Translations under genes and position numbers: made by a program | Shown: one piece after another, positions 1-44,571 of the stretch | Position numbering within the stretch: position 1 is the first letter of the stretch | How the letters are laid out: every line of letters begins with the position of its first letter | The notes under the pieces: model-generated | What the model saw: the letters and a program-made list of their open reading frames with translations, nothing else | Database searches by the model: none | What the model was told of the DNA's origin: nothing | NCBI GenBank assembly: GCA_044892505.1 | Contig: CM097884.1 | Location: 160,766,001 to 160,830,000, forward strand | Direction: 5' to 3' | DNA length: 64,000 bases | Origin: Schmidtea nova | Taxonomy: Eukaryota

Positions 1-173
1 CAAGCATACATTTGGCTACTGATATGACGCTCAAGATAAAAGTCAATGTCATCATCAGTGAACCAGGCCTTTGGATCACGCACGGAATTTAAATTATTTA
101 CAGTTTTATTACTTGTGCTGTCTGCATCAGTCTCTTTTGAGATTGGGGCAGATATTAACACTGATGCAGGCAC
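1..173 (-). CDS. ORF2 N-terminal fragment of E0 (start of Ulp1-like protease domain), continues off window
   Basis: Matches the first ~57 codons of ORF2 in the other copies (VPASVLISAP...WFTDDDIDFYL...QMYAC). Confidence 0.88.
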   Translation of the reverse strand, partial: MPASVLISAPISKETDADSTSNKTVNNLNSVRDPKAWFTDDDIDFYLERHISSQMYA

Positions 174-179
174 ACACCT

Positions 180-2939
180 TCATTTATTTTTTTGTGTTAC
201 GCGCTTCGGTCTTTTAATAGTTTTGCGATGAATATTAATTATTTCCTCATTTGACGTAGCTGGACCTAAATCAATGTCAGTGGGAAGCAAGCGCTTAAGA
301 CTTTCTCTGTCTTTGTCTGATGTCAATAGAATGTTATCATCTATGTTAGGGGAAGGAGATATTTCTACAGATTCTTCATTAGAATCAACGACATTCTCAA
401 CAGTTTTCACACTATCAATTGTTGTATCGACATTTTCAGCAATCGTCTCAGAATTTACATGTGGTAAAACATATTCAAGTAGTCTCGAGATGTGTACGCT
501 CATACTAGGTGAACAAATTTTCCTACAATATTGAGGAACACGGAAACGTCTGTTGCCATTTAAGAAATATCTCTTATCTCTTACTACAAAAAACACGAGT
601 CTCTTTGCTCTTAAAATCTCATCATCAGTTAGTTCAGATTCAAAATCATTGATCTTACTAGATATTATATTAAGCGCCTTGATTTGATCCGACTTATTTG
701 GAAGAGACTTATCTACAAACTCTAAGAAAGCATTTAACTCAGAAATAGTTTTGGGAGAGATTATGTTATGGATCTTGTCAATCTCTTGAGACAAATTAAC
801 CTGCTTTAGTTTCAGAAGTCTTTCCTGACAACTAGTTTTATAATAAGAACTACTGAGATTCTCGATCATTTCTGGGCCCCATATCTCAATCGTGTCAATG
901 TCCAATGAGTACGAGTTTTCAATATCTGTTATGGAATGCATTAAAAAGCAATTCCTAAGATAGTTTTGAACGTATATATCAAAACTCGGCTTAATAATTA
1001 ATTTTAGGGAATCCCTTAATTTTAAATAATTTAGGTAAAAAATTATGTCAACCAGTTTTTGAGATGAAGTTGGTTGATCAAGAAGAGAACTAAACACATT
1101 GTCATCCTCTGACATCTGAACAAAGTTCAGTAGCCCTAAATTAAATATGATATCGGAGGCACCATCTTCGTGCACAGCGACTGAATTTTCACTATAAATT
1201 TTAATAAATTTGCCCCCTGTAAATGAAATCTGTTCAGGGAATTTATTTTCAGATTTTAATTTTTCTATTAAATTATTTAATGCGTGAGGATTAGCATATG
1301 TGTTTTCAATAAAACACAATTCCTCAATTTCTGGGTGTGATTTAAATAAATTTTGTAATTGCAACCTTGACAATTCAGATGCAGTTTGAGTTGAGAAAAT
1401 TTCATCTGAATCGCAAGTGCTAAGAATATCGAGCATTACAAAATCTCCGTCTAGATATTTAATCTGTGATTTTATTAAAAAGTCAGGGAGCTCTTTTCGC
1501 TGTTTTAATTCGCGAAGAATATTATTAATTTGTATTTCCCTGGACTTTAAATTACTAATAGACACAGTGCCGGCCAGTTTCGACGAAAGGGAACAAAGAA
1601 AACGCTTAATAATTGAAGAAGCCGGGACAAATTTTGTATTTGTATTGTTGGCCTTCAAAATGTTTGATCCAATCAAAAACGTCTTTGTAGAGGATTTTAA
1701 AATATTATTATTTAAAGGGACAACTTTATCAGGCACCAAATTCTGAAAAACACAGATATTATGATTTCTATAAAAGAAACCTTCAAACCCAGCGATGCTT
1801 AGTGGATTTTCCTCTTTTATAATAATTAAAAGGTCATTGTTAATTAAATCAAATTTGTTGCTTGATTCTTTTAATTTCAAAAGTTTGTGAAATTTGGGAA
1901 ATAATCTAAGAAAAGAATTTTTCTCCTTTTTTGTTAATATACGCGGTAAAATATTTTCAAAAATTTCTTTTTTTAATTTAAGATGAGAATTTTTATTTTT
2001 ATTATTATTTCTGAAATTAGAATTTGATTTCATTTTCAAACTTTCCAATTTGAAATTTCGTTTATTTTGAAAGTTCTTATCAGTATTAAAATTATTTTTA
2101 GATTTAATTTCCTGATCATTTGATTTTAAATTAGAAATGTTATTTGCAGTTGAAATTTCGAAATTTTCAAAATTTCGATTGTTTAAATTATCCAATTTAA
2201 TCGCAGGTAAATTAATATTTTCAAAAACAGGTTTAATAATTTTCTTTTTATTTTCATTATTATTATTAATAGTTATATTATAATTTTCCAGCCAATTTCC
2301 ATCGATTGCATAGCTTTCAGGAGTAGATCCATCATCTAGTAGAAGGATCTTTTCAAAATTATTATTTTTATTAAAAAATAAATTTTTGTTATTTAGATTT
2401 TTGTTATTTAAAGTACTTTTTACATTATTATTATTATCTTTATAATCACTTAAATTTTGACTATTCGGCTTTTCTAGTTGAATTGTTCGTTCGTTTTTAG
2501 TCTGTGTAGAATTATTTCTGTAAATTGTCGACTTATTTAATAAAATTTTATGACATGAATAGCAAAGATTGCCTGCACTTTTGTCATTTTTATTTACATT
2601 CAAAGAGTTGTCATACAATTCGCTATTTTTATCTAAATTAGGAATTATTCTAAAATTTTCAATATTAGATTTACAATTAAAAGTAGATAAATTAGCATAT
2701 AAATTACCACGACCAAAACCGGACACACCATTGTCAGAATTACCATTGTGAAAATTACAATTATAATTTAAATTATCATTTAGATTTTTCGAACCAAAAT
2801 TAGATATAGGTTTATTTACAAAATCTTGGTTCGAAACTTCCAAAAATTTAACAATATAATCTAACTTACAGTTATTAGAATAAATCATCCTTTCAAGCTC
2901 TGACAAATTCGCCCCAAATGGCACAAAATTATCCTGCAT
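180..2939 (-). CDS. Retrotransposon ORF1 (919 aa; 15-bp NNKNL duplication allele)
   Basis: True ATG start, long open frame conserved in 7 copies, directly upstream of and in frame with the RT ORF. Confidence 0.9.
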   Translation of the reverse strand: MQDNFVPFGANLSELERMIYSNNCKLDYIVKFLEVSNQDFVNKPISNFGSKNLNDNLNYNCNFHNGNSDNGVSGFGRGNLYANLSTFNCKSNIENFRIIPNLDKNSELYDNSLNVNKNDKSAGNLCYSCHKILLNKSTIYRNNSTQTKNERTIQLEKPNSQNLSDYKDNNNNVKSTLNNKNLNNKNLFFNKNNNFEKILLLDDGSTPESYAIDGNWLENYNITINNNNENKKKIIKPVFENINLPAIKLDNLNNRNFENFEISTANNISNLKSNDQEIKSKNNFNTDKNFQNKRNFKLESLKMKSNSNFRNNNKNKNSHLKLKKEIFENILPRILTKKEKNSFLRLFPKFHKLLKLKESSNKFDLINNDLLIIIKEENPLSIAGFEGFFYRNHNICVFQNLVPDKVVPLNNNILKSSTKTFLIGSNILKANNTNTKFVPASSIIKRFLCSLSSKLAGTVSISNLKSREIQINNILRELKQRKELPDFLIKSQIKYLDGDFVMLDILSTCDSDEIFSTQTASELSRLQLQNLFKSHPEIEELCFIENTYANPHALNNLIEKLKSENKFPEQISFTGGKFIKIYSENSVAVHEDGASDIIFNLGLLNFVQMSEDDNVFSSLLDQPTSSQKLVDIIFYLNYLKLRDSLKLIIKPSFDIYVQNYLRNCFLMHSITDIENSYSLDIDTIEIWGPEMIENLSSSYYKTSCQERLLKLKQVNLSQEIDKIHNIISPKTISELNAFLEFVDKSLPNKSDQIKALNIISSKINDFESELTDDEILRAKRLVFFVVRDKRYFLNGNRRFRVPQYCRKICSPSMSVHISRLLEYVLPHVNSETIAENVDTTIDSVKTVENVVDSNEESVEISPSPNIDDNILLTSDKDRESLKRLLPTDIDLGPATSNEEIINIHRKTIKRPKRVTQKNK

Positions 2940-3294
2940 TAATATTTTAAAAAATTTATTAACCTTTTCAATATCTTTCTTATAAATTTATTATAATGAG
3001 TTATTTAAACAAATTTATATTAAAGGTTTTCAAATTTCGAAATTTACTTTTCCTCGACAAAATCAAACAACGCATGGCAAATGTTTGCCATTTTCAATCA
3101 AATGACAATCTCTTTCACAAATCTCATAGAATTTTGATTTTGTAAAATTATTAATAATTTTTTTTCAAATAATGGTAACGACCTTGGAACGTTTATATTA
3201 ATCCAATTTGTTGAATTTGATTTTGAGTAGAGCAAATTAGTTTCGACAAATTTACAACGTTTACAATCTTATCATGATGAAAGTGAAAAAAATA

Positions 3295-3365
3295 TTCCCT
3301 GACCGGGAGTCGAACCCGGGCCACCTGGGTGAGAGCCAGGAATCCTAACCGCTAGACCATCAGGA
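3295..3365 (-). tRNA. tRNA-Glu(CTC) variant with 1-bp deletion at the 5' acceptor stem (TCC vs TCCC)
   Basis: + strand reads accatcaggatcg instead of accatcagggatcg; real defect or homopolymer error. Confidence 0.7.
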
Positions 3366-3660
3366 TCGATATATGTTTCCAATCTCTAGTTAAAGGTTTT
3401 CGAATTTCGAAATTTACTTTTCCTCGACAAAATCAAACAACGCATGGCAAATGTTTGCCATTTTCAATCAAATGACAATCTCTTTCACAATTCTCATAGA
3501 ATTTTGATTTTGTAAAATTATTAATAATTTTTTTTCAAATAATGGTAACGACCTTGGAACGTTTATATTAATCCAATTTGTTGAATTTGATTTTGAGTAG
3601 AGCAAATTAGTTTCGACAAATTTACAACGTTTACAATCTTATCATGATGATAAGAAAGTG

Positions 3661-3667
3661 AAAAAAA
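3661..3667 (-). terminator. Pol III terminator (T7) 2 nt after the tRNA 3' end; a T7 or T9 run follows every tRNA copy (representative)
   Basis: Minus strand GGGAA-TA-TTTTTTT. Confidence 0.85.
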
Positions 3668-3669
3668 TA

Positions 3670-3741
3670 TTCCCTGACCGGGAGTCGAACCCGGGCCACC
3701 TGGGTGAGAGCCAGGAATCCTAACCGCTAGACCATCAGGGA
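3670..3741 (-). tRNA. tRNA-Glu (anticodon CTC)
   Basis: TCCCTGATGGTCTAGCGGTTAGGATTCCTGGCTCTCACCCAGGTGGCCCGGGTTCGACTCCCGGTCAGGGAA: 7-bp acceptor stem, anticodon stem CCTGG/CCAGG, GTTCGA T-loop, 72 nt, no intron, no encoded CCA. Confidence 0.97.
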
Positions 3742-4037
3742 TCGATATATGTTTCCAATCTCTAGTTAAAGGTTTTCGAATTTCGAAATTTACTTTTCCT
3801 CGACAAAATCAAACAACGCATGGCAAATGTTTGCCATTTTCAATCAAATGACAATCTCTTTCACAATTCTCATAGAATTTTGATTTTGTAAAATTATTAA
3901 TAATTTTTTTTCAAATAATGGTAACGACCTTGGAACGTTTATATTAATCCAATTTGTTGAATTTGATTTTGAGTAGAGCAAATTTGTTTCGACAAATTTA
4001 CAACGTTTACAATCTTATCATGAAAGTGAAAAAAATA

Positions 4038-4109
4038 TTCCCTGACCGGGAGTCGAACCCGGGCCACCTGGGTGAGAGCCAGGAATCCTAACCGCTAGAC
4101 CATCAGGGA
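4038..4109 (-). tRNA. tRNA-Glu(CTC)
   Basis: Same 72-nt sequence. Confidence 0.96.
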
Positions 4110-4413
4110 TCGATATATGTTTCCAATCTCTAGTTAAAGGTTTTCGAATTTCGAAATTTACTTTTCCTCGACAAAATCAAACAACGCATGGCAAATGTTT
4201 GCCATTTTCAATCAAATGACAATCTCTTTTACAAATCTCATAGAATTTTGATTTTGTAAAATTATTAATAATTTTTTTTCAAATATTGGTAACGACCTTG
4301 GAACGTTTATATTAATCCAATTTGTTGAATTTGATTTTGAGTAGAGCAAATTAGTTTCGACAAATTTACAACGTTTACAATCTTATCATGATGATAAGAA
4401 AGTGAAAAAAATA

Positions 4414-4466
4414 TTCCCTGACCGGGAGTCGAACCCGGGCCACCTGGGTGAGAGCCAGGAATCCTA
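4414..4466 (-). pseudogene. tRNA-Glu target remnant (nt 20-72) at the 3' junction of E1
   Basis: + strand ...ccaggaatccta|gtaaacg replaces ...ccaggaatccta|accgctagaccatcaggga. Confidence 0.95.
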
Positions 4467-4997
4467 GTAAACGTTTATTAATTATAATAAATTTTTCAAA
4501 TTTACAATGGGACAATGCTCTACATGGAGCATGCCTTTCATGAAAGATACAGCAAATAAAGAGACAGAATTTCAATGATAGTTAAAATCAAATGTGAGAA
4601 AATAAGGTCTCAATAAATGTTGCTTTTCATAAATGTTCCCTGGCGATGATTTGAAATATTTCATCGGACTGTTTTTCCGGCTTTGCGACATCCTTCAGCC
4701 TATCTTTTCATGTCATGATCACAGTCTTTTTGTTTTCTGAGGAATCCGCAGCAATAAAACTTCTTCACGAGTCAAGGTGTCTAGAGACATTGAGTTTACA
4801 GACGCTAGAATTGGTTCTACTAAATAAATATACAAATATACATATATACATATATAAATCCTCGGACTCGGGCGGAAATAAATCTAAAATAAATTTTATC
4901 TACAAATTAAAAAAAAAGGTTTATACTATATACATTAAAATGGCAATTCTCCGCACAACGAGTGTCTGCATTTTGATCGTGGCATTCATTACAAATC

Positions 4998-7900
4998 TCA
5001 CAAGTCTCTAAGATAACCAGTCGTATGAAAATGCCACCTATTGGCTGAGTGTTTGATATTACTTATCGCACACTGTTTCAAAAGAGGATCGATTTTCTTC
5101 AAAGGTATTCCAACCTTTAAAAGAACATCGAAAGTCAAAGGTGGAATTGATCCTAGAGAACCAATGATACAAGTGAGTAGTTCTACCTTGTAATCAGGTT
5201 TCGCGATTTGAATTGCCTTTCTTAACGATTCGTATTTTAACAGGTTTTCTTTATTTACCTGCTCAAAACTCGAAAGACAATCAATCGGACATTTCATGTC
5301 TACCATGAGAATTCTTTTCCTATTTACGTCGGTGATGATGAGGTCAACTCGCTCTTTAGAGTATGGAACCAACGAACAAGTTTGATCGATAACGACAATA
5401 AGATTCGGATCTGTCAGTTGATCTGTTATCAATTTCAAGCAATCATTGTGTCTTTTTGTTGCAAGTGTTTGATGAACTTTACATGATTGCAAAACATGTG
5501 CCATTGTTTCCTCCTCAGAGTGGCAGCGACGACAAAGTCTTTCTTTTACATTTCGATAAGGTTTAGCTAGAAATGACAATGTATTCGTGCGAGCACGATG
5601 GATGAAATTCCAAGAGAATTCTGACAGATCACTTCGAAAGATTGCTTTATTGATCTTAGGCGAAAGAGTGATTGCTGATGCGATCAAATTACTTTTATTA
5701 CTACTTTGCCATTTGGAAAGATAAGAATCAAAAAGCGTATCATGCAAGATCTTAGAAATAGAATTCCGAAAATCGGGAGTTGCGATCAATGTACCTCGCT
5801 CTTTTGTTGTAATATGAAGCACAGGTTCATTATTTAGGGTTTGAAAGGATATTCTAATGGCATGAATTTTATTCAGGAATTCTACAGATGTTCGCGCTCT
5901 CCGAAAACGTGTTTTCTTTCCATGATGGATGCGCTTGCATTCAATGCCATTTAACCAATCAAAGCTATCCTGAAGAGTTGGATGCTGAATTCCAAGTCGA
6001 GAACTAGTGACAAATTTCAAAGAGTCTGTATTGATCTTTTTTGCATAATTGCAAATGGAAGTAAAAAGTCGAAAAAAGTGCACTATGGTTTGGACATGAT
6101 ATTCGTCAAGCAGGTCAACACAAGAAGCTCCACCATTTTCCGTGGAGTTGTAAAAATATGAAATCTCTGAATTTTCAGGAAGATTCATCATTTTTCTCAA
6201 ATGACTTCTTAATTTACTTGTGTTGTTACCAGTGACATTGCTATTTCCATAAGGGATTGCCAAAGTACTTGTTTTTATTTCCCTCGTTCTAAAAGGAAAG
6301 ATGAGGCGTGAATGTAGAAAAATCTTGTAAGCTTTGAGTTTTTGCCAGCCTAACAAGTCAGAGTTTGCAAGTTTTTTGGCGTCAGATATTACCTTATTTA
6401 GGATATCATAAGGGCTTTGATCAATATCTTCTCCAACTGGGACACCAAGATACTGATAGAACTCGCGAGATAGCAATTTCTTGATTTTGATATTTTCAAT
6501 AGAAATTTCACTATCTATGTGGACCTTAGGAAGTTGAATGTATCCACATTTATCTGGTCGATATACAAAACCTATTTGTGCAGCAGTGTCAACAGCTATA
6601 TCAGTGATTCGTTGCAAGTCACTGACATTTTTTGATATTAAAGCAATGTCGTCTGCGTATGCAAGAATTTGTAACGGAGATGTGCCAATCATGAATGGTT
6701 CTACTGTCGATCGGCTGACAGCTTCAAGTACCGGATTAATCGCAATGGCGAATAAAATCATTGAAATTGGGCATCCTTGTTTCACCCCTTGTCTAATAGC
6801 TATGTTTGAAGTGAGAACTGGTCCGCAACTGTACATAGAAGATGTGTCGGAATAAAGTAGTTGCAATATCGTAGTGAACTCATCACATACGCCAATATAT
6901 CGAAGGACAGACCACATGTATTCATGAGGGACACTACCAAATGCGTCTTTAATGTCAAGCCATGCAATCGATATTGGACAATCTTTACTATATTTAGAGT
7001 GTTCCAAAGCAGCTGTCAGTATGGAATTGTGTTCAACACAACCATCGTGTTCTGAACCTCCCTTTTGTCCAATGTGTAGAATGTTGTTCAAATCTACCCA
7101 AGTAGTAAGACGTCTAGCCAGTATCGAAGCAAAAACCTTATAAATCACTGACAATAAGGCAATCGGCCTCCAAGATGACACATTGTCGTATTTGTCATTC
7201 TTGTCAGGTTTCGGAATCAAAAGAGTCCTGAAAGATTTCCAATCATTTGGAACGATTTTATCGGTTATTATTCGGTTAAAAAGAAATGCAAGGAGATCCC
7301 CATCGGGATCCAAAAGACGCAAATCTCTATATTGAATACCATCAGAACCAGGAGATGTGTTGTCAGCTTTTTTAAGCTCAAACAATACCTCGACTGGCAA
7401 TATTCGATCGAGTTTCAAAGGCTTTTGTGATTTTTTACAGAATTGAAGGACAGAATTCCAGCATTTGGATATAGGTAATGCGTGACTATAATATTTAATA
7501 ATGTCTTCAATTGAAGGCCTTACATTTATTTTAAAATTATCAATGATTTTACTGACGGCTCTTTTCATTTCCGTCATAAATAGAGAAATAATTTGAGTTT
7601 TATTTAATTTTGAGTTATCTCTCTTATTTTTCCCTAAATAAAGTTTAAAAGTTGATTTCTTACGATCAGGAAATTCTTTGATAATTATGTCAATGATCTC
7701 ATTGACAGTTGAAAATTTAATTGCTATTAAAAGGTCTTTGATTTTAATTTTGCGTTGAATTAAATTTAATTTAACTAGTTCCTTTTCATTCCCTTTTGGT
7801 ATTATTTTAGTGTTAATTTTATTTGTTTTATTGGCAACTGGAACTAAGGAACTAATAACATTTCCAATATCGCGCAGGTTGATGTTTTCAAGGGATATGT

Positions 7901-9578
7901 CACAAGCATAATGTTTGATAAATGCGCATATAAGTATTTTACAGAGAAGACCTGAACCTCGCACATCATGTGGACAAATACCGTTTGTCAATGCACGACC
8001 AGGGGTTTCTCGTAATTCATTAATTTTTTCAATGATGGTTTTACTCATTGAGAGATAATTAATACCGGATAAAAGAGTTGTTGGATTCAAAATATAATGT
8101 GCATCGGTATTGTAATCTATTATTAATAAGTTTTCCCTTGATTTTTGGGGGGTTATAACTGAAAAAATGACTTGTGCTTTAACAAGACATTCATAATTTA
8201 GAAATGTACTGATGTATTGGGTACAATCATCGAGGATCGCCGTTGACATTGTTGCGTTTAACAAGATAAAGGTCGGTGATAATTTTAGATTGTTAAAATA
8301 AGTTGTTAGAATTTGATCGTCAAGCTTCCCATTTATTGTGTCTAAGTTTAAACAGATTTCATTTACATGTTTTAGTTTCAATGATTTTAGTGATTTTGTA
8401 GTATCTTCAAGATTGGCAATGTTATTAAAAATTAACTTTTCTAATAAAGTAATGAAATATGATGCCATTATGATTGGTTCAACGGAAAATATTGGTGAGA
8501 AACTGATCTCGTGATCAATGATAAAGTTAATCTTTCTCTGAAGGAAAAATTGATTCAAATAATCGGTCATATTTTCTCCTATACCGATTAATCTTTCTTT
8601 TACAGTTTGAAAGCCTGTAGTAAAAATGTGACTTTTTCCGAGTTGAACAGAGAACAGAAATAAGCACCAAGAGTTGTTATTTGGAATAATACTTATTACA
8701 TGTTCAATGTATTGAAATTGTTTGAAAGTCACGTTTTCAATAATGAAAGCATTATTTTGCGCAACTATATTTGACGTTAATTCGGGAGAGAGAACCATTA
8801 TATTAGTGTAGGTTGAAAACCATTTATCAATCAATGTTGATATGCATGGGTTTTCGTTATATAGCATGATGTTATTTGCTTTGCTTTTATATCTAACTGC
8901 TTTCTTGAAGTTGATCAAGTTCATAAAGTTTGACTTTGGCGGACCACCTCCAATTGTTTTTGATGTAATAGTGGTACAGTTAGCATTATTATTGAAAACA
9001 TCTTCCCTTATACTATTTACAAAATTATCAGGAAAGTATTCCCAAACTTGACTAATTATCAATGCGTAAGCGCAGACAAAAGGCCCACAATCAAAGTCGT
9101 TATTTTGATATTCAAGTTTTATATGGGGATTATATGTTACCGCCGCTTTAAGTTTAAACAATTTGTTTAAAGCCATATTTATTTTAAGGGCGCTCGTTTT
9201 GTTGATAAATTTATTTTTATTTTCAAGAATTGGATCAATGTAGTACGAAAGTAAGGATGATTTACAGTACACGAACAAGATCCAATGTGCGTTTGATATA
9301 TTTAATGGGCAAAGTATTATTTGCGCGTTAAACACCGTTTCTGGAAAGGAAATTATATTTTCCTCAAGATTTGCAAGTAAAATGCTAACAATATAGCATT
9401 TAATGCAAGCATACATTTGGCTACTGATATGACGCTCAAGATAAAAGTCAATGTCATCATCAGTGAACCAGGCCTTTGGATCACGCACTGAACTTAAATT
9501 ATTTACAGTTTTATTACTTGTGCTGTCTGCATCAGTCTCTTTTGAGATTGGGGCAGATATTAAGACTGATGCAGGCAC
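4998..9578 (-). CDS. ORF2: Ulp1/C48-like protease + reverse transcriptase + CCHC finger + restriction-like endonuclease
   Basis: HW/D/Q/DCG protease motifs; SPGSDG, WRPIALL, WLDIKDAFGSV, GVKQGCPIS, YADD (6659-6648), YLGV; CRRC-x8-H-x4-C (5534-5481); RVD...VDMK. The called start is GTG, not ATG. Confidence 0.95.
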   Translation of the reverse strand: MPASVLISAPISKETDADSTSNKTVNNLSSVRDPKAWFTDDDIDFYLERHISSQMYACIKCYIVSILLANLEENIISFPETVFNAQIILCPLNISNAHWILFVYCKSSLLSYYIDPILENKNKFINKTSALKINMALNKLFKLKAAVTYNPHIKLEYQNNDFDCGPFVCAYALIISQVWEYFPDNFVNSIREDVFNNNANCTTITSKTIGGGPPKSNFMNLINFKKAVRYKSKANNIMLYNENPCISTLIDKWFSTYTNIMVLSPELTSNIVAQNNAFIIENVTFKQFQYIEHVISIIPNNNSWCLFLFSVQLGKSHIFTTGFQTVKERLIGIGENMTDYLNQFFLQRKINFIIDHEISFSPIFSVEPIIMASYFITLLEKLIFNNIANLEDTTKSLKSLKLKHVNEICLNLDTINGKLDDQILTTYFNNLKLSPTFILLNATMSTAILDDCTQYISTFLNYECLVKAQVIFSVITPQKSRENLLIIDYNTDAHYILNPTTLLSGINYLSMSKTIIEKINELRETPGRALTNGICPHDVRGSGLLCKILICAFIKHYACDISLENINLRDIGNVISSLVPVANKTNKINTKIIPKGNEKELVKLNLIQRKIKIKDLLIAIKFSTVNEIIDIIIKEFPDRKKSTFKLYLGKNKRDNSKLNKTQIISLFMTEMKRAVSKIIDNFKINVRPSIEDIIKYYSHALPISKCWNSVLQFCKKSQKPLKLDRILPVEVLFELKKADNTSPGSDGIQYRDLRLLDPDGDLLAFLFNRIITDKIVPNDWKSFRTLLIPKPDKNDKYDNVSSWRPIALLSVIYKVFASILARRLTTWVDLNNILHIGQKGGSEHDGCVEHNSILTAALEHSKYSKDCPISIAWLDIKDAFGSVPHEYMWSVLRYIGVCDEFTTILQLLYSDTSSMYSCGPVLTSNIAIRQGVKQGCPISMILFAIAINPVLEAVSRSTVEPFMIGTSPLQILAYADDIALISKNVSDLQRITDIAVDTAAQIGFVYRPDKCGYIQLPKVHIDSEISIENIKIKKLLSREFYQYLGVPVGEDIDQSPYDILNKVISDAKKLANSDLLGWQKLKAYKIFLHSRLIFPFRTREIKTSTLAIPYGNSNVTGNNTSKLRSHLRKMMNLPENSEISYFYNSTENGGASCVDLLDEYHVQTIVHFFRLFTSICNYAKKINTDSLKFVTSSRLGIQHPTLQDSFDWLNGIECKRIHHGKKTRFRRARTSVEFLNKIHAIRISFQTLNNEPVLHITTKERGTLIATPDFRNSISKILHDTLFDSYLSKWQSSNKSNLIASAITLSPKINKAIFRSDLSEFSWNFIHRARTNTLSFLAKPYRNVKERLCRRCHSEEETMAHVLQSCKVHQTLATKRHNDCLKLITDQLTDPNLIVVIDQTCSLVPYSKERVDLIITDVNRKRILMVDMKCPIDCLSSFEQVNKENLLKYESLRKAIQIAKPDYKVELLTCIIGSLGSIPPLTFDVLLKVGIPLKKIDPLLKQCAISNIKHSANRWHFHTTGYLRDL

Positions 9579-9584
9579 ACACCT

Positions 9585-12329
9585 TCATTTATTTTTTTGT
9601 GTTACGCGCTTCGGTCTTTTAATAGTTTTACGATGAATATTAATTATTTCCTCATTTGACGTAGCTGGACTTAAATCAATGTCAGTGGGAAGCAAGCGCT
9701 TAAGACTTTCTCTGTCTTTGTCTGATGTCAATAGAATGTTATCATCTATGTTAGGGGAAGGAGATATTTCTACAGATTCTTCATTAGAATCAACGACATT
9801 CTCAACAGTTTTCACACTATCAATTGTTGTACCGACATTTTCAGCAATAGTCTCAGAATTTACATGTGGTAAAACATATTCAAGTAGTCTCGAAATGTGT
9901 ACGCTCATACTAGGTGTACAAATTTTCCTACAATATTGAGGAACACGGAAACGTCTGTTGCCATTTAAGAAATATCTCTTATCTCTTATTACAAAAAACA
10001 CGAGTCTCTTTGCTCTTAAAATCTCATCATCGGTTAGTTCAGATTCAAAATCATTGATCTTACTAGATATTATATTAAGCGCCTTGATTTGATCCGACTT
10101 ATTTGGAAGAGACTTATCTACAAACTCTAAGAAAGCATTTAACTCAGAAATAGTTTTGGGAGAGATTATGTTATGGATCTTGTCAATCTCTTGAGACAAA
10201 TTAACCTGCTTTAGTTTCAGAAGTCTTTCCTGACAACTAGTTTTATAATAAGAACTACTGAGATTCTCGATCATTTCTGGGCCCCATATCTCAATCGTGT
10301 CAATGTCCAATGAGTACGAGTTTTCAATATCTGTTATGGAATGCATTAAAAAGCAATTCCTAAGATAGTTTTGAACGTATATATCAAAACTCGGCTTAAT
10401 AATTAATTTTAGGGAATCCCTTAATTTTAAATAATTTAGGTAAAAAATTATGTCAACCAGTTTTTGAGATGAAGTTGGTTGATCAAGAAGAGAACTAAAC
10501 ACATTGTCATCCTCTGACATCTGAACAAAGTTCAGTAGCCCTAAATTAAACATGATATCGGAGGCACCATCTTCGTGCACAGCGACTGAATTTTCACTAT
10601 AAATTTTAATAAATTTGCCCCCTGTAAATGAAATCTGTTCAGGGAATTTATTTTCAGATTTTAATTTTTCTATTAAATTATTTAATGCGTGAGGATTAGC
10701 ATATGTGTTTTCAATAAAACACAATTCCTCAATTTCTGGGTGTGATTTAAATAAATTTTGTAATTGCAACCTTGACAATTCAGATGCAGTTTGAGTTGAG
10801 AAAATTTCATCTGAATCGCAAGTGCTAAGAATATCGAGCATTACAAAATCTCCGTCTAGATATTTAATCTGTGATTTTATTAAAAAGTCAGGGAGCTCTT
10901 TTCGCTGTTTTAATTCGCGGAGAATATTATTAATTTGTATTTCCCTGGACTTTAAATTACTAATAGACACAGTGCCGGCCAGTTTCGACGAAAGGGAACA
11001 AAGAAAACGCTTAATAATTGAAGAAGCCGGGACAAATTTCGTATTTGTATTGTTGGCCTTCAAAATGTTTGATCCAATCAAAAACGTCTTTGTAGAGGAT
11101 TTTAAAATATTATTATTTAAAGGGACAACTTTATCAGGCACCAAATTCTGAAAAACACAGATATTATGATTTCTATAAAAGAAACCTTCAAACCCAGCGA
11201 TGCTTAGTGGATTTTCCTCTTTTATAATAATTAAAAGGTCATTGTTAATTAAATCAAATTTGTTGCTTGATTCTTTTAATTTCAAAAGTTTGTGAAATTT
11301 GGGAAATAATCTAAGAAAAGAATTTTTCTCCTTTTTTGTTAATATACGCGGTAAAATATTTTCAAAAATTTCTTTTTTTAATTTAAGATGAGAATTTTTA
11401 TTTTTATTATTATTTCTGAAATTAGAATTTGATTTCATTTTCAAACTTTCCAATTTGAAATTTCGTTTATTTTGAAAGTTCTTATCAGTATTAAAATTAT
11501 TTTTAGATTTAATTTCCTGATCATTTGATTTTAAATTAGAAATGTTATTTGCAGTTGAAATTTCGAAATTTTCAAAATTTCGATTGTTTAAATTATCCAA
11601 TTTAATCGCAGGTAAATTAATATTTTCAAAAACAGGTTTAATAATTTTCTTTTTATTTTCATTATTATTATTAATAGTTATATTATAATTTTCCAGCCAA
11701 TTTCCATCGATTGCATAGCTTTCAGGAGTAGATCCATCATCTAGTAGAAGGATCTTTTCAAAATTATTATTTTTATTAAAAAATAAATTTTTGTTATTTA
11801 AAGTACTTTTTACATTATTATTATTATCTTTATAATCACTTAAATTTTGACTATTCGGCTTTTCTAGTTGAATTGTTCGTTCGTTTTTAGTCTGTGTAGA
11901 ATTATTTCTGTAAATTGTCGACTTATTTAATAAAATTTTATGACATGAATAGCAAAGATTGCCTGCACTTTTGTCATTTTTATTTACATTCAAAGAGTTG
12001 TCATACAATTCGCTATTTTTATCTAAATTAGGAATTATTCTAAAATTTTCAATATTAGATTTACAATTAAAAGTAGATAAATTAGCATATAAATTACCAC
12101 GACCAAAACCGGACACACCATTGTCAGAATTACCATTGTGAAAATTACAATTATAATTTAAATTATCATTTAGATTTTTCGAACCAAAATTAGATATAGG
12201 TTTATTTACAAAATCTTGGTTCGAAACTTCCAAAAATTTAACAATATAATCTAACTTACAGTTATTAGAATAAATCATCCTTTCAAGCTCTGACAAATTC
12301 GCCCCAAATGGCACAAAATTATCCTGCAT
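9585..12329 (-). CDS. Retrotransposon ORF1 (914 aa)
   Basis: Intact ORF, same as other copies. Confidence 0.9.
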   Translation of the reverse strand: MQDNFVPFGANLSELERMIYSNNCKLDYIVKFLEVSNQDFVNKPISNFGSKNLNDNLNYNCNFHNGNSDNGVSGFGRGNLYANLSTFNCKSNIENFRIIPNLDKNSELYDNSLNVNKNDKSAGNLCYSCHKILLNKSTIYRNNSTQTKNERTIQLEKPNSQNLSDYKDNNNNVKSTLNNKNLFFNKNNNFEKILLLDDGSTPESYAIDGNWLENYNITINNNNENKKKIIKPVFENINLPAIKLDNLNNRNFENFEISTANNISNLKSNDQEIKSKNNFNTDKNFQNKRNFKLESLKMKSNSNFRNNNKNKNSHLKLKKEIFENILPRILTKKEKNSFLRLFPKFHKLLKLKESSNKFDLINNDLLIIIKEENPLSIAGFEGFFYRNHNICVFQNLVPDKVVPLNNNILKSSTKTFLIGSNILKANNTNTKFVPASSIIKRFLCSLSSKLAGTVSISNLKSREIQINNILRELKQRKELPDFLIKSQIKYLDGDFVMLDILSTCDSDEIFSTQTASELSRLQLQNLFKSHPEIEELCFIENTYANPHALNNLIEKLKSENKFPEQISFTGGKFIKIYSENSVAVHEDGASDIMFNLGLLNFVQMSEDDNVFSSLLDQPTSSQKLVDIIFYLNYLKLRDSLKLIIKPSFDIYVQNYLRNCFLMHSITDIENSYSLDIDTIEIWGPEMIENLSSSYYKTSCQERLLKLKQVNLSQEIDKIHNIISPKTISELNAFLEFVDKSLPNKSDQIKALNIISSKINDFESELTDDEILRAKRLVFFVIRDKRYFLNGNRRFRVPQYCRKICTPSMSVHISRLLEYVLPHVNSETIAENVGTTIDSVKTVENVVDSNEESVEISPSPNIDDNILLTSDKDRESLKRLLPTDIDLSPATSNEEIINIHRKTIKRPKRVTQKNK

Positions 12330-12690
12330 TAATATTTTAAAAAATTTATTAACCTTTTCAATATCTTTCTTATAAATTTATTATAATGAGTTATTTAAAC
12401 AAATTTATATTAAAGGTTTTCAAATTTCGAAATTTACTTTTCCTCGACAAAATCAAACAACGCATGGCAAATGTTTGCCATTTTCAATCAAATGACAATC
12501 TCTTTCACAAATCTCATAGAATTTTGATTTTGTAAAATTATTAATAATTTTTTTTCAAATAATGGTAACGACCTTGGAACGTTTATATTAATCCAATTTG
12601 TTGAATTTGATTTTGAGTAGAGCAAATTAGTTTCGACAAATTTACAACGTTTACAATCTTATCATGATGATAAGATTGTAAAAAAAAATA

Positions 12691-12762
12691 TTCCCTGACC
12701 GGGAGTCGAACCCGGGCCACCTGGGTGAGAGCCAGGAATCCTAACCGCTAGACCATCAGGGA
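12691..12762 (-). tRNA. tRNA-Glu(CTC)
   Basis: 72-nt consensus copy, T9 trailer variant. Confidence 0.96.
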
Positions 12763-13067
12763 TCGATATATGTTTCCAATCTCTAGTTAAAGGTTTTCGA
12801 ATTTCGAAATTTACTTTTCCTCGACAAAATCAAACAACGCATGGCAAATGTTTGCCATTTTCAATCAAATGACAATCTCTTTCACAATTCTCATAGAATT
12901 TTGATTTTGTAAAATTATTAATAATTTTTTTTCAAATAATGGTAACGACCTTGGAACGTTTATATTAATCCAATTTGTTGAATTTGATTTTGAGTAGAGC
13001 AAATTAGTTTCGACAAATTTACAACGTTTACAATCTTATCATGATGATAAGATTGTAAAAAAAAATA

Positions 13068-13120
13068 TTCCCTGACCGGGAGTCGAACCCGGGCCACCTG
13101 GGTGAGAGCCAGGAATCCTA
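13068..13120 (-). pseudogene. tRNA-Glu target remnant (nt 20-72) at the 3' junction of E2
   Basis: Same junction atccta|gtaaacg. Confidence 0.95.
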
Positions 13121-13651
13121 GTAAACGTTTATTATTTATAATAAATTTTCCAAATTTACAATGGGACAATGCTCTACATGGAGCATGCCTTTCATGAAAG
13201 ATACAGCAAATAAAGAGACAGAATTTCAATGATAGTTAAAATCAAATGTGAGAAAATAAGATCTCAATAAATGTTGCTTTTCATAAATGTTCCCTGGCGA
13301 TGATTTGAAATATTTCATCGGACTGTTTTTCCGGCTTTGCGACATCCTTCAGCCTATCTTTTTATGTCATGATCACAGTCTTTTTGTTTTCTGAGGAATC
13401 CGCAGCAATAAAACTTCTTCACGAGTCAAGGTGTCTAGAGACATTGAGTTTACAGACTCTAGAATTGGTTCTACTAAATAAATATACAAATATACATATA
13501 TACATATATAAATCCTCGGACTCGGGCGGAAAAAAATCTAAAATAAATTTTATCTACAAATTAAAAAAAAAGGTTTATACTATATACATTAAAATGGCAA
13601 TTCTCCGCACAACGAGTGTCTGCATTTTGATCGTGGCATTCATTACAAATC

Positions 13652-16600
13652 TCACAAGTCTCTAAGATAACCAGTCGTATGAAAATGCCACCTATTGGCT
13701 GAGTGTTTGATATTACTTATCGCACACTGTTTCAAAAGAGGATCGATTTTCTTCAAAGGTATTCCAACCTTTAAAAGAACATCGAAAGTCAAAGATGGAA
13801 TTGATCCTAGAGAACCAATGATACAAGTGAGTAGTTCTACCTTGTAATCAGGTTTCGCGATTTGAATTGCCTTTCTTAACGATTCGTATTTTAACAGGTT
13901 TTCTTTATTTACCTGCTCAAAACTCGAAAGACAATCAATCGGACATTTCATGTCTACCATGAGAATTCTTTTCCTATTTACGTCGGTGATGATGAGGTCA
14001 ACTCGCTCTTTAGAGTATGGAACCAACGAACAAGTTTGATCGATAACGACAATAAGATTCGGATCTGTCAGTTGATCTGTTATCAATTTCAAGCAATCAT
14101 TGTGTCTTTTTGTTGCAAGTGTTTGATGAACTTTACATGATTGCAAAACATGTGCCATTGTTTCCTCCTCAGAGTGGCAGCGACGACAAAGTCTTTCTTT
14201 TACATTTCGAAAAGGTTTAGCTAGAAATGACAATGTATTCGTGCGAGCACGATGGATGAAATTCCAAGAGAATTCTGACAGATCACTTCGAAAGATTGCT
14301 TTATTGATCTTAGGCGAAAGAGTGATTGCTGATGCGATCAAATTACTTTTATTACTACTTTGCCATTTGGAAAGATAAGAATCAAAAAGCGTATCATGCA
14401 AGATCTTAGAAATAGAATTCCGAAAATCGGGAGTTGCGATCAATGTACCTCGCTCTTTTGTTGTAATATGAAGCACAGGTTCATTATTTAGGGTTTGAAA
14501 CGATATCCTAATGGCATGAATTTTATTCAGGAATTCTACAGATGTTCGCGCTCTCCGAAAACGTGTTTTCTTTCCATGATGGATGCGCTTGCATTCAATG
14601 CCATTTAACCAATCAAAGCTATCCTGAAGAGTTGGATGCTGAATTCCAAGTCGAGAACTAGTGACAAATTTCAAAGAGTCTGTATTGATCTTTTTTGCAT
14701 AATTGCAAATGGAAGTAAAAAGTCGAAAAAAGTGCACTATGGTTTGGACATGATATTCGTCAAGCAGGTCAACACAAGAAGCTCCACCATTTTCCGTGGA
14801 GTTATAAAAATATGAAATCTCTGAATTTTCAGGAAGATTCATCATTTTTCTCAAATGACTTCTCAATTTACTTGTGTTGTTACCAGTGACATTGCTATTT
14901 CCATAAGGGATTGCCAAAGTACTTGTTTTTATTTCCCTCGTTCTAAAAGGAAAGATGAGGCGTGAATGTAGAAAAATCTTGTAAGCTTTGAGTTTTTGCC
15001 AGCCTAACAAGTCAGAGTTTGCAAGTTTTTTGGCGTCAGATATTACCTTATTTAGGATATCATAAGGGCTTTGATCAATATCTTCTCCAACTGGGACACC
15101 AAGATACTGATAGAACTCGCGAGATAGCAATTTCTTGATTTTGATATTTTCAATAGAAATTTCACTATCTATGTGGACCTTAGGAAGTTGAATGTATCCA
15201 CATTTTTCTGGTCGATATACAAAACCTATTTGTGCAGCAGTGTCAACAGCTATATCAGTGATTCGTTGCAAGTCACTGACATTTTTTGATATTAAAGCAA
15301 TGTCGTCTGCGTATGCAAGAATTTGTAACGGAGATGTGCCAATCATGAATGGTTCTACTGTCGATCGGCTGACAGCTTCAAGTACCGGATTAATCGCAAT
15401 GGCGAATAAAATCATTGAAATTGGGCATCCTTGTTTCACCCCTTGTCTAATAGCTATGTTTGAAGTGAGAACTGGTCCGCAACTGTACATAGAAGATGTG
15501 TCGGAATAAAGTAGTTGCAATATCGTAGTGAACTCATCACATACGCCAATATATCGAAGGACAGACCACATGTATTCATGAGGGACACTACCAAATGCGT
15601 CTTTAATGTCAAGCCATGCAATCGATATTGGACAATCTTTACTATATTTAGAGTGTTCCAAAGCAGCTGTCAGTATGGAATTGTGTTCAACACAGCCATC
15701 GTGTTCTGAACCTCCCTTTTGTCCAATGTGTAGAATGTTGTTCAAATCTACCCAAGTAGTAAGACGTCTAGCCAATATCGAAGCAAAAACCTTATAAATC
15801 ACTGACAATAAGGCAATCGGCCTCCAAGATGACACATTATCGTATTTGTCATTCTTGTCAGGTTTCGGAATCAAAAGAGTCCTGAAAGATTTCCAATCAT
15901 TTGGAACGATTTTATCGGTTATTATTCGGTTAAAAAGAAATGCAAGGAGATCCCCATCGGGATCCAAAAGACGCAAATCTCTATATTGAATACCATCAGA
16001 ACCAGGAGATGTGTTGTCAGCTTTTTTAAGCTCAAACAATACCTCGACTGGCAATATTCGATCGAGTTTCAAAGGCTTTTGTGATTTTTTACAGAATTGA
16101 AGGACAGAATTCCAGCATTTGGATATAGGTAATGCGTGACTATAATATTTAATAATGTCTTCAATTGAAGGCCTTACATTTATTTTAAAATTATCAATGA
16201 TTTTACTGACGGCTCTTTTCATTTCCGTCATAAATAGAGAAATAATTTGAGTTTTATTTAATTTTGAGTTATCTCTCTTATTTTTCCCTAAATAAAGTTT
16301 AAAAGTTGATTTCTTACGATCAGGAAATTCTTTGATAATTATGTCAATGATCTCATTGACAGTTGAAAATTTAATTGCTATTAAAAGGTCTTTGATTTTA
16401 ATTTTGCGTTGAATTAAATTTAATTTAACTAGTTCCTTTTCATTCCCTTTTGGTATTATTTTAGTGTTAATTTTATTTGTTTTATTGGCAACTGGAACTA
16501 AGGAACTAATAACATTTCCAATATCGCGCAGGTTGATGTTTTCAAGGGATATGTCACAAGCATAATGTTTGATAAATGCGCATATAAGTATTTTACAGAG

Positions 16601-18232
16601 AAGACCTGAACCTCGCACATCATGTGGACAAATACCGTTTGTCAATGCACGACCAGGGGTTTCTCGTAATTCATTAATTTTTTCAATGATGGTTTTACTC
16701 ATTGAGAGATAATTAATACCGGATAAAAGAGTTGTTGGATTCAAAATATAATGTGCATCGGTATTGTAATCTATTATTAATAAGTTTTCCCTTGATTTTT
16801 GGGGGGTTATAACTGAAAAAATGACTTGTGCTTTAACAAGACATTCATAATTTAGAAATGTACTGATGTATTGGGTACAATCATCGAGGATCGCCGTTGA
16901 CATTGTTGCGTTTAACAAGATAAAGGTCGGTGATAATTTTAGATTGTTAAAATAAGTTGTTAGAATTTGATCGTCAAGCTTCCCATTTATTGTGTCTAAG
17001 TTTAAACAGATTTCATTTACATGTTTTAGTTTCAATGATTTTAGTGATTTTGTAGTATCTTCAAGATTGGCAATGTTATTAAAAATTAACTTTTCTAATA
17101 AAGTAATGAAATATGATGCCATTATGATTGGTTCAACGGAAAATATTGGTGAGAAACTGATCTCGTGATCAATGATAAAGTTAATCTTTCTCTGAAGGAA
17201 AAATTGATTCAAATAATCGGTCATATTTTCTCCTATACCGATTAATCTTTCTTTTACAGTTTGAAAGCCTGTAGTAAAAATGTGACTTTTTCCGAGTTGA
17301 ACAGAGAACAGAAATAAGCACCAAGAGTTGTTATTTGGAATAATACTTATTACATGTTCAATGTATTGAAATTGTTTGAAAGTCACGTTTTCAATAATGA
17401 AAGCATTATTTTGCGCAACTATATTTGACGTTAATTCGGGAGAGAGAACCATTATATTAGTGTAGGTTGAAAACCATTTATCAATCAATGTTGATATGCA
17501 TGGGTTTTCGTTATATAGCATGATGTTATTTGCTTTGCTTTTATATCTAACTGCTTTCTTGAAGTTGATCAAGTTCATAAAGTTTGACTTTGGCGGACCA
17601 CCTCCAATTGTTTTTGATGTAATAGTGGTACAGTTAGCATTATTATTGAAAACATCTTCCCTTATACTATTTACAAAATTATCAGGAAAGTATTCCCAAA
17701 CTTGACTAATTATCAATGCGTAAGCGCAGACAAAAGGCCCACAATCAAAGTCGTTATTTTGATATTCAAGTTTTATATGGGGATTATATGTTACCGCCGC
17801 TTTAAGTTTAAACAATTTGTTTAAAGCCATATTTATTTTAAGGGCGCTCGTTTTGTTGATAAATTTATTTTTATTTTCAAGAATTGGATCAATGTAGTAC
17901 GAAAGTAAGGATGATTTACAGTACACGAACAAGATCCAATGTGCGTTTGATATATTTAATGGGCAAAGTATTATTTGCGCGTTAAACACCGTTTCTGGAA
18001 AGGAAATTATATTTTCCTCAAGATTTGCAAGTAAAATGCTAACAATATAGCATTTAATGCAAGCATACATTTGGCTACTGATATGACGCTCAAGATAAAA
18101 GTCAATGTCATCATCAGTGAACCAGGCCTTTGGATCACGCACTGAACTTAAATTATTTACAGTTTTATTACTTGTGCTGTCTGCATCAGTCTCTTTTGAG
18201 ATTGGGGCAGATATTAAGACTGATGCAGGCAC
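13652..18232 (-). CDS. ORF2 (protease-RT-CCHC-RLE), intact
   Basis: 1526 aa, same motifs. Confidence 0.95.
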   Translation of the reverse strand: MPASVLISAPISKETDADSTSNKTVNNLSSVRDPKAWFTDDDIDFYLERHISSQMYACIKCYIVSILLANLEENIISFPETVFNAQIILCPLNISNAHWILFVYCKSSLLSYYIDPILENKNKFINKTSALKINMALNKLFKLKAAVTYNPHIKLEYQNNDFDCGPFVCAYALIISQVWEYFPDNFVNSIREDVFNNNANCTTITSKTIGGGPPKSNFMNLINFKKAVRYKSKANNIMLYNENPCISTLIDKWFSTYTNIMVLSPELTSNIVAQNNAFIIENVTFKQFQYIEHVISIIPNNNSWCLFLFSVQLGKSHIFTTGFQTVKERLIGIGENMTDYLNQFFLQRKINFIIDHEISFSPIFSVEPIIMASYFITLLEKLIFNNIANLEDTTKSLKSLKLKHVNEICLNLDTINGKLDDQILTTYFNNLKLSPTFILLNATMSTAILDDCTQYISTFLNYECLVKAQVIFSVITPQKSRENLLIIDYNTDAHYILNPTTLLSGINYLSMSKTIIEKINELRETPGRALTNGICPHDVRGSGLLCKILICAFIKHYACDISLENINLRDIGNVISSLVPVANKTNKINTKIIPKGNEKELVKLNLIQRKIKIKDLLIAIKFSTVNEIIDIIIKEFPDRKKSTFKLYLGKNKRDNSKLNKTQIISLFMTEMKRAVSKIIDNFKINVRPSIEDIIKYYSHALPISKCWNSVLQFCKKSQKPLKLDRILPVEVLFELKKADNTSPGSDGIQYRDLRLLDPDGDLLAFLFNRIITDKIVPNDWKSFRTLLIPKPDKNDKYDNVSSWRPIALLSVIYKVFASILARRLTTWVDLNNILHIGQKGGSEHDGCVEHNSILTAALEHSKYSKDCPISIAWLDIKDAFGSVPHEYMWSVLRYIGVCDEFTTILQLLYSDTSSMYSCGPVLTSNIAIRQGVKQGCPISMILFAIAINPVLEAVSRSTVEPFMIGTSPLQILAYADDIALISKNVSDLQRITDIAVDTAAQIGFVYRPEKCGYIQLPKVHIDSEISIENIKIKKLLSREFYQYLGVPVGEDIDQSPYDILNKVISDAKKLANSDLLGWQKLKAYKIFLHSRLIFPFRTREIKTSTLAIPYGNSNVTGNNTSKLRSHLRKMMNLPENSEISYFYNSTENGGASCVDLLDEYHVQTIVHFFRLFTSICNYAKKINTDSLKFVTSSRLGIQHPTLQDSFDWLNGIECKRIHHGKKTRFRRARTSVEFLNKIHAIRISFQTLNNEPVLHITTKERGTLIATPDFRNSISKILHDTLFDSYLSKWQSSNKSNLIASAITLSPKINKAIFRSDLSEFSWNFIHRARTNTLSFLAKPFRNVKERLCRRCHSEEETMAHVLQSCKVHQTLATKRHNDCLKLITDQLTDPNLIVVIDQTCSLVPYSKERVDLIITDVNRKRILMVDMKCPIDCLSSFEQVNKENLLKYESLRKAIQIAKPDYKVELLTCIIGSLGSIPSLTFDVLLKVGIPLKKIDPLLKQCAISNIKHSANRWHFHTTGYLRDL

Positions 18233-18238
18233 ACACCT

Positions 18239-20983: not shown

Positions 20984-21344
20984 TAATATTTTAAAAAATT
21001 TATTAACCTTTTCAATATCTTTCTTATAAATTTATTATAATGAGTTATTTAAACAAATTTATATTAAAGGTTTTCAAATTTCGAAATTTACTTTTCCTCG
21101 ACAAAATCAAACAACGCATGGCAAATGTTTGCCATTTTCAATCAAATGACAATCTCTTTCACAAATCTCATAGAATTTTGATTTTGTAAAATTATTAATA
21201 ATTTTTTTTCAAATAATGGTAACGACCTTGGAACGTTTATATTAATCCAATTTGTTGAATTTGATTTTGAGTAGAGCAAATTAGTTTCGACAAATTTACA
21301 ACGTTTACAATCTTATCATGATGATAAGATTGTAAAAAAAAATA

Positions 21345-21416
21345 TTCCCTGACCGGGAGTCGAACCCGGGCCACCTGGGTGAGAGCCAGGAATCCTAACC
21401 GCTAGACCATCAGGGA
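21345..21416 (-). tRNA. tRNA-Glu(CTC)
   Basis: 72-nt consensus copy. Confidence 0.96.
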
Positions 21417-21721
21417 TCGATATATGTTTCCAATCTCTAGTTAAAGGTTTTCGAATTTCGAAATTTACTTTTCCTCGACAAAATCAAACAACGCATGGCA
21501 AATGTTTGCCATTTTCAATCAAATGACAATCTCTTTCACAATTCTCATAGAATTTTGATTTTGTAAAATTATTAATAATTTTTTTTCAAATAATGGTAAC
21601 GACCTTGGAACGTTTATATTAATCCAATTTGTTGAATTTGATTTTGAGTAGAGCAAATTAGTTTCGACAAATTTACAACGTTTACAATCTTATCATGATG
21701 ATAAGATTGTAAAAAAAAATA

Positions 21722-21774
21722 TTCCCTGACCGGGAGTCGAACCCGGGCCACCTGGGTGAGAGCCAGGAATCCTA
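21722..21774 (-). pseudogene. tRNA-Glu target remnant (nt 20-72) at the 3' junction of E3
   Basis: Same junction. Confidence 0.95.
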
Positions 21775-22305
21775 GTAAACGTTTATTATTTATAATAAAT
21801 TTTCCAAATTTACAATGGGACAATGCTCTACATGGAGCATGCCTTTCATGAAAGATACAGCAAATAAAGAGACAGAATTTCAATGATAGTTAAAATCAAA
21901 TGTGAGAAAATAAGATCTCAATAAATGTTGCTTTTCATAAATGTTCCCTGGCGATGATTTGAAATATTTCATCGGACTGTTTTTCCGGCTTTGCGACATC
22001 CTTCAGCCTATCTTTTTATGTCATGATCACAGTCTTTTTGTTTTCTGAGGAATCCGCAGCAATAAAACTTCTTCACGAGTCAAGGTGTCTAGAGACATTG
22101 AGTTTACAGACTCTAGAATTGGTTCTACTAAATAAATATACAAATATACATATATACATATATAAATCCTCGGACTCGGGCGGAAAAAAATCTAAAATAA
22201 ATTTTATCTACAAATTAAAAAAAAAGGTTTATACTATATACATTAAAATGGCAATTCTCCGCACAACGAGTGTCTGCATTTTGATCGTGGCATTCATTAC
22301 AAATC

Positions 22306-26886: not shown

Positions 26887-26892
26887 ACACCT

Positions 26893-29998: not shown

Positions 29999-30070
29999 TT
30001 CCCTGACCGGGAGTCGAACCCGGGCCACCTGGGTGAGAGCCAGGAATCCTAACCGCTAGACCATCAGGGA
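29999..30070 (-). tRNA. tRNA-Glu(CTC)
   Basis: 72-nt consensus copy. Confidence 0.96.
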
Positions 30071-36287: not shown

Positions 36288-36293
36288 ACACCT

Positions 36294-44565: not shown

Positions 44566-44571
44566 ACACCT

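Follow-up and report, generated by a model that had tools for sequence, protein, structure and literature searches.

Introduction

R5 retrotransposons have two open reading frames (ORFs). For two-ORF retrotransposons that lack long terminal repeats (non-LTR), the mechanisms described are reinitiation, overlaps, and 2A skipping. Readthrough that links a structural ORF to an ORF encoding a protease and a reverse transcriptase (RT) is already known from gammaretroviruses and long terminal repeat (LTR) elements, and readthrough in general is an established device of retroviruses, RNA viruses, and some LTR elements. Utopia is described as generally encoding one protein, and the main text of that description contains neither "stop codon" nor "readthrough" (PMC4640811). 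Here, we analyze a stretch of 64,000 nucleotides of the Schmidtea nova genome (GenBank assembly GCA_044892505.1, contig CM097884.1, positions 160,766,001 to 160,830,000 of the forward strand), hereafter called the window, which contains seven near-identical copies (about 99%) of a retrotransposon of approximately 8 kb on the minus strand. ORF1 and ORF2 of the element are separated by one in-frame UGA, which is probably subject to programmed readthrough yielding a 2443-residue polyprotein of ORF1, protease, RT, and endonuclease.

The element is a non-LTR retrotransposon of the restriction-like endonuclease (RLE) type from the R5/LIN lineage of the NeSL clade. It is LIN25-like, and its family is already known. 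It resembles the planarian family LIN25_SM in targeting tRNA-Glu and in the combination of RT and RLE, and NeSL and Utopia-1_TSP in possessing a Ulp1-like protease, here positioned upstream of the RT (PMC4640811). LIN25_SM inserts near the 5' end of tRNA-Glu(TTC), whereas the window element is located in the D-loop of tRNA-Glu(CTC) (PMC4640811). The two also differ in that sister families of the window element use many other tRNA arrays. In the literature on non-LTR and planarian elements, judged from listings and abstracts, no paper turned up that describes readthrough in an RLE non-LTR element; an earlier remark on the stop may exist in R5 or Repbase sources.

Organization of the ORF1-ORF2 junction

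A single frame extends throughout both ORFs. Counted from stop to stop, it is composed of 930 codons (12377-9588), the TGA (9587-9585), and 1528 codons (9584-5001). Counted from the first ATG of ORF1 (12329), the joined frame comprises 914+1+1528 = 2443 codons. The junction and the regions flanking it are as follows (coordinates of the window; the 11 families are those of the same genome described below):

9585..9587, minus strand: the one in-frame TGA separating ORF1 from ORF2, directly after AAA (Lys)
9579..9584, minus strand: 6-nt spacer AGG TGT, two sense codons in 11 of 11 families
9520..9578, minus strand: predicted stem-loop, candidate readthrough stimulator, in which GUGC + CUGCAUCAGUCUU pairs with AGAGACUGAUGCAG + GCAC around a 22-nt loop
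9414..9416, minus strand: earliest ATG in the frame of ORF2 (codon 57 counted after the stop), which is not conserved from family to family
9588..12329, minus strand: ORF1, 914 residues from the first ATG, of which the last ~85 are predicted to be disordered
4998..9584, minus strand: ORF2, 1528 codons, with protease, RT, CCHC finger, and restriction-like endonuclease region
9051..9470, minus strand: protease domain of the Ulp1-like type (Peptidase_C48), which starts with the WFTDDDID motif and takes in His100, Asp, and Cys166
165..54376, minus strand: seven identical junction copies, with stops at 180, 9585, 18239, 26893, 36294, 44572, and 54368

The minus-strand 24-mer AAT AAA TGA AGG TGT GTG CCT GCA, which the first-pass annotation had pointed out, is present in seven exact copies and in none of 100 shuffles. 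The frame map agrees with that annotation in joining ORF1 and ORF2 by a single UGA, with no AUG at the start of ORF2. The GTG that it had placed two codons after the stop is codon 3, and the first ATG (9416-9414), codon 55 from the GTG as it had stated, is codon 57 from the stop. The protease motif WFTDDDIDFYL, at codons 39-49 from the stop, lies upstream of this ATG. Initiation at the ATG had been expected to truncate the protease. The motif would indeed be lost, but the ATG of the window family still precedes His (100) and Cys (166), and only in other families is it located behind catalytic residues. The variants upstream of the ATG, reported as mostly synonymous, are three synonymous and one non-synonymous; however, the ratio is the same as that of the whole ORF2 (22:8). 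Therefore, these variants prove little alone, and the argument is carried by the comparison of families.

The junction falls within a predicted disordered linker, and two listed contigs from public runs of unrecorded kind bridge it. Among the listed rows for contigs of four such runs, which have no bearing on splicing or expression, there is no other letter at 9585-9587 and no local joint skipping the stop.

Conservation of the junction among families of the same genome

A protein search of the genome with the protease region produced 150 scored matches, including three other families at 63-66% identity. Three families were added by RT search and four by motif search. The resulting set comprises 11 families, each represented by one intact copy, and protein search identified seven of the 11 without reference to the junction motif. 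Identity between families is 28-67% in ORF1 and 51-80% in ORF2, subfamily pairs excluded. All 11 families share the succession of ORF1, AAA, TGA, six bases, and GTG CCT GC in one frame. The first-pass annotation had proposed examining relatives for the in-frame stop. Each family has one frame and one TGA with no conserved ATG, and relatives with ORF1 and ORF2 in differing frames are absent among the 11, while the distant metagenomic element L065 has the same layout.

The junction motif occurs at 861 places genome-wide, in a search that is blind to families whose junction differs, and 851 of these places contain the TGA. The ten junctions without TGA at the expected position have AGA (three), CGA (two), TTA (one), TAA (two), or a shortened spacer (two). 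The strict form AAA-TGA-N6-GTGCCTGC...GCAGANAGCAC was found 843 times, and ATG replaces GTG at two of the 861 places. Five of the six stop-to-sense variants were examined, and one of them (L090) is otherwise intact; fused copies thus arise but are rare. In L090 (G000:C3:140693864 region, minus strand), AGA replaces the stop and creates a natural open frame of 2505 codons from stop to stop. In another intact copy, L084 (G000:C1:312615574), which adjoins a tRNA-Val array and has 894+1538 codons, codon 3 is ATG in place of GTG.

The first in-frame ATG of ORF2 is codon 37, 37, 37, 57, 83, 87, 108, 109, 126, 171, or 258 in the 11 families, and it lies past the catalytic His in five of them. The linker between the stem and the protease is only 22% identical, and the distances from the stop to the WF of the protease motif (102, 111, 114, 123, and 135 nt) are all multiples of three. 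The His-Asp-Cys triad is present in 15 of 15 aligned proteins. Since the position of the ATG wanders while the triad is kept and linker lengths stay in frame, ORF2 is translated from upstream of any AUG.

The junction stop is TGA in all 11 families, in contrast to the stop of ORF2 itself, which is TAA in ten of them. As a neutral yardstick, G at the third position is kept across the 11 families in none of 42 invariant Lys, Glu, or Gln columns. By this comparison, the stop appears to be selected as UGA, which plain termination would not need. UGA and an upstream AA have been described as permissive for readthrough (10.1101/2022.12.06.519325). The A preceding the UGA forms an overlapping AUG in 11 of 11 families, which opens only an ORF of 15-24 codons in the -1 frame; in the window element, this is a dead-end ORF of 18 codons.

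Predicted stem-loop downstream of the UGA

The hairpin AGGU-GUGU-GCCU, which the first-pass annotation placed after the stop, reaches only -2.1 kcal/mol and is negligible. A far stronger stem-loop is predicted at 9578-9520. Its stem is formed by 4+13 base pairs (17 bp) and begins six nucleotides after the UGA, so that its 5' edge is the GTG that the ORF caller reads as Met. The predicted energy is -25.6 kcal/mol (z -4.4), and none of 200 shuffles is as low. A corresponding stem-loop is predicted in all 11 families, with z between -2.9 and -4.7. In seven of them, it has the lowest energy among all 78-nt windows of the coding region.

The arms of the predicted stem are frozen at the codon level. 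Among the seven families picked by protein search, six of nine invariant residues with four or six synonymous codons use one codon throughout in codons 1-22, compared to eight of 271 elsewhere (Fisher p 4e-7, uncorrected for relatedness). Distant database proteins keep the junction motif; over ORF2 residues 1-700, the identity of three of these proteins is 31-42%. The amino acids of the distant relatives, known as protein sequences only, permit 11-14 of 14 pairs in the same register. For three of these relatives, random stretches of the same proteins permit approximately 7-8 pairs, and at most two of 400 reach the observed value. The protein sequences of distant relatives force compensatory swaps at three stem positions: G-C for C/U-G in P0004, P0005, and P0015, C-G for U-A in P0010, and A-U for G-C in P0021.

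In tested readthrough signals, a spacer of 6-9 nt is followed by a stem of 12 or more base pairs with synonymous conservation (PMC3159437; PMC13517186). The geometry of the junction matches these signals, except that the base at +4 is never C.

Distant relatives

The metagenomic element L065 is 30% identical and forms a long branch outside the group, in a tree without named references. It contains 734 codons, TGA CAA, and 1148 codons in frame, and its stop lies just before a decayed Ulp1-like domain. Because the frame uses TGG 15 times, TGA is not the Trp codon of L065. In L065 (81-5732), an RLE element, zinc-finger-like motifs precede the TGA-CAA and the protease domain is catalytically decayed. 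Its 3' flank contains a partial tRNA with anticodon GAA, just under the gathering score.

Of 140 profile matches, only P0031, a decayed fragment of 362 residues, crosses the junction. Its frame is open there, with Val, not Met, at the position of the GTG. The upstream part of P0031 resembles the Cys-rich tail of ORF1 only at E 2.2. A search of viral contigs and phage records found nothing.

Proposed readthrough and alternative explanations

Support for the readthrough reading of the first-pass annotation comes from the layout of the junction and its preservation from family to family, from the absence of a conserved AUG, from coding conservation ahead of the first AUG, and from the frozen arms of the predicted stem-loop. 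We propose that most ribosomes would terminate after ORF1 and a minority would insert an amino acid at the UGA, assisted by the upstream AA and by the stem at the mRNA entry channel. Readthrough would occur at a low rate, and the terminating majority would supply ORF1 protein in excess over the RT.

The protease and the RT that would follow the stop have recognizable relatives. Peptidase_C48 scores above its Pfam cut-off in ORF2, RVT_1 is matched at E 3.8e-26, and zf-RVT weakly. The solved proteins nearest to ORF2 in the PDB are R2 retrotransposon proteins and ULP1/SENP proteases, and the R2 match has a second stretch over the C-terminal region. Two further features of ORF2 are:

6441..7217, minus strand: reverse transcriptase domain, ORF2 residues 790-1048
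8943..8951, minus strand: Gly-Gly-Gly directly after the protease, a candidate self-cleavage site where 13 of 15 proteins share a GG in one column

Ulp1 enzymes cleave after Gly-Gly. Given this specificity and the Gly-Gly that follows the protease in 13 of 15 proteins, the Ulp1-like protease may cut the polyprotein at this site and free its RT-endonuclease part. We speculate, with less than even confidence, that this tRNA-targeting RLE lineage converged on the gag-pol plan of retroviruses, in which stem-stimulated UGA readthrough would set the ratio of ORF1 to RT, a SUMO-type protease past the stop would cut at Gly-Gly, and a distant branch would use a structure-free UGA-CAA in the same position.

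Several observations weigh against readthrough. The 11 families share ancestry, and their counts are not independent events. The conservation of the UGA could stem partly from the overlapping AUG of A-UGA, and none of the 11 families has, at +4, the C that marks the classic leaky context UGA-C; the base there is A, G, or U, and C occurs only in L065. L065, a single contig, has no stable stem (z about 0); in view of this and of its decayed protease, its stop may be a chance nonsense change. There are no compensatory changes among 12 sequences from the genome of the window, and the stem arms could thus be conserved as sequence or as protein. The distant proteins force mismatches too, at position 6.1 in three of nine relatives and at three positions in P0009. 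The protein searches yielded no relative with a full-length fusion (three matches; a search for longer proteins spanning 2691-5000 residues; the 140 profile matches). Eight database relatives (P0003-5, 9, 10, 15, 21, and 39) are called with Met at the GTG position; the Val of P0031 suggests that these are gene-caller readings of GTG. Finally, the junction of Tca2 with its UGA and structure alone gave no readthrough in a reporter, as described for that element (PMC2194720).

The GTG is kept at 859 of the 861 motif places, which also counts against readthrough and would suit the main alternative route: termination at the UGA, followed by reinitiation or internal initiation at the GUG two codons on. 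The product would be a separate ORF2 protein starting Met-Pro-Ala-Ser, and the stem-loop would hold the 40S subunit, as in the coupling of SART1 and L1. We consider this route unlikely. The GUG is paired within the stem, which accounts for its conservation, and its context is poor for a start, with U at -3 and C at +4. Protein conservation begins exactly at codon 3 and L084 has ATG there, both as expected of a start, and SART1 coupling requires a downstream structure while L1 reinitiates unconventionally (PMC5972666). However, a GUG start leaves the use of UGA over UAA, the fixed frame, and the fixed 6-nt spacer unexplained, and L065 has neither GTG nor stem. A reinitiating ribosome would meet the AUG of A-UGA first and translate only 15-24 codons out of frame. 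An in-frame AUG near the ORF1 stop, as in SART1 and L1, does not occur here: the AUG that overlaps the stop belongs to the -1 frame, and the first ATG in frame comes only at codons 37-258.

Production of ORF2 from a separate mRNA is very unlikely. Such an mRNA could originate from an internal promoter, from a spliced leader that supplies the AUG and is trans-spliced at the conserved in-frame GAG of codon 16, or from removal of the stop by splicing. GAG is a rare splice acceptor, and at codon 16 it lacks a preceding pyrimidine tract. The flatworm spliced leader ends in AUG and can supply a start codon (PMC9851317), the Tca2 junction contains a minor promoter (PMC2194720), and all 12 copies checked have an in-frame NAG as codon 16. 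Four distant relatives have Gln (CAR) at this codon, but several others have Ile, Val, or Ser, which are incompatible with NAG. The G-to-C change at this codon is matched by its pairing partner, so that the stem accounts for it, and a separate mRNA does not explain the 5' arm, the UGA, or the frame. Still less credible, and highly improbable, are a restart at the AUG of A-UGA in the -1 frame with return by a +1 frameshift, and decoding of the UGA as selenocysteine. The A-UGA is present in 11 of 11 families, and the selenocysteine UGA of SEPN1 has a stem 6 nt after it (PMC3159437). Nevertheless, the end of the -1 ORF varies (codons 15-24), and inspection showed no common shift site. A selenocysteine insertion sequence (SECIS) had no Rfam match in the element at E up to 5, and a loose SECIS pattern, absent from three of the 11 3' regions, has matches in the others that do not coincide in position. 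Two further candidates were ruled out: an alternative genetic code, as TGA also ends ORF2 in the window family and L065 uses in-frame TGG 15 times, and a -1 frameshift on A AAA AAT, as a stop follows immediately in the -1 frame and other families lack the run.

Element copies and their tRNA targets

The copies of the element are interspersed among tRNA-Glu(CTC) genes, which form a tandem array with a 376-bp unit:

4467..12409, minus strand: element copy, approximate extent, with the 3' end abutting a tRNA-Glu gene cut in the D-loop (GGT|TAGGATT)
3020..4466, minus strand: tRNA-Glu(CTC) tandem array, target of the element, 376-bp unit, 30 tRNA genes in the window

The six 3' ends of the element in the window are all joined to tRNA-Glu at one D-loop position. 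The 3' terminus aatttattataaataataaacgttta is, compared by eye, near-identical to the terminus of LIN25_SM printed in S6 Fig of PMC4640811. At the 5' junction (window 12410-12400 and 13120, minus strand), approximately 40 bp of the target unit are missing, including the 5' 19 nt of the tRNA, and no target-site duplication is visible. The 5' untranslated region of the element is short (~80 nt) and AT-rich.

The copy with the stop at 180 is truncated by the window edge. In the copy with the stop at 54368, a one-base frameshift at 52145-52197 (minus strand) divides ORF2 into 740 + 805 codons, and a 740-codon frame was found again at another locus of the genome. Contigs from all four public runs jump ~4.8 kb of the element (window 7134-11900), which suggests an internally deleted non-autonomous derivative.

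The window family occupies Glu, His, and Met tRNA arrays. The arrays of its sister families are those of Gly, Gly/Asp, Leu, Pro, Val, and Met, although no tRNA lies close to some of the copies sampled. Many tRNA arrays have thus been reached in the radiation of the lineage (L031, L034, L040, L042, L062, L075, L078, L084, and L090).

Searches with ORF1 found no database relative, no Pfam family above cut-off, and no clear Atlas family, and a fold search with its model (predicted local distance difference test score, pLDDT, of 51) found no match. Across 11 sequences, ORF1 has a conserved core of ~500 residues with 85 invariant columns, to which some families add a Cys-rich motif near the C-terminus.

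Comparison with known systems

If the proposed readthrough takes place, programmed readthrough extends to R2-like elements, whose relatives are studied as genome-writing tools, and a compact signal of ~70 nt functions without the usual UGA-C context. In hundreds of copies, the start of ORF2 would then be misplaced in repeat libraries and by gene callers, and a possible role would emerge for the Ulp1 domain found in NeSL-clade elements.

The junction of the window element shares with the gag-pol junction of Moloney murine leukemia virus (MoMLV) and with alphavirus-type signals of UGA and 3' stem-loop a single in-frame stop, a protease directly after it, a short spacer followed by structure, and frozen synonymous sites, as far as these signals are described in PMC3159437 and PMC13517186. 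It differs from them in having UGA-A/G/U in place of UAG-G or UGA-C, a 6-nt spacer, and a simple predicted stem-loop with no pseudoknot shown. Unlike gammaretroviruses, the window element is a non-LTR element and has a Ulp1 cysteine protease, not an aspartic one. Tca2, Tj1, and Tosmo1-3 resemble it in that a conserved xAA-TGA separates the structural ORF from the protease-RT ORF (PMC2194720; 10.1101/2022.12.06.519325). These are, however, LTR elements, and the Tj1 group has TGA-CT (10.1101/2022.12.06.519325). SART1 and mammalian L1 are, like the window element, two-ORF non-LTR elements with a structure downstream of the ORF1 stop (PMC5972666). They differ in possessing an AUG of ORF2, whereas the lineage of the window element has its overlapping AUG out of frame and conserves none in frame.

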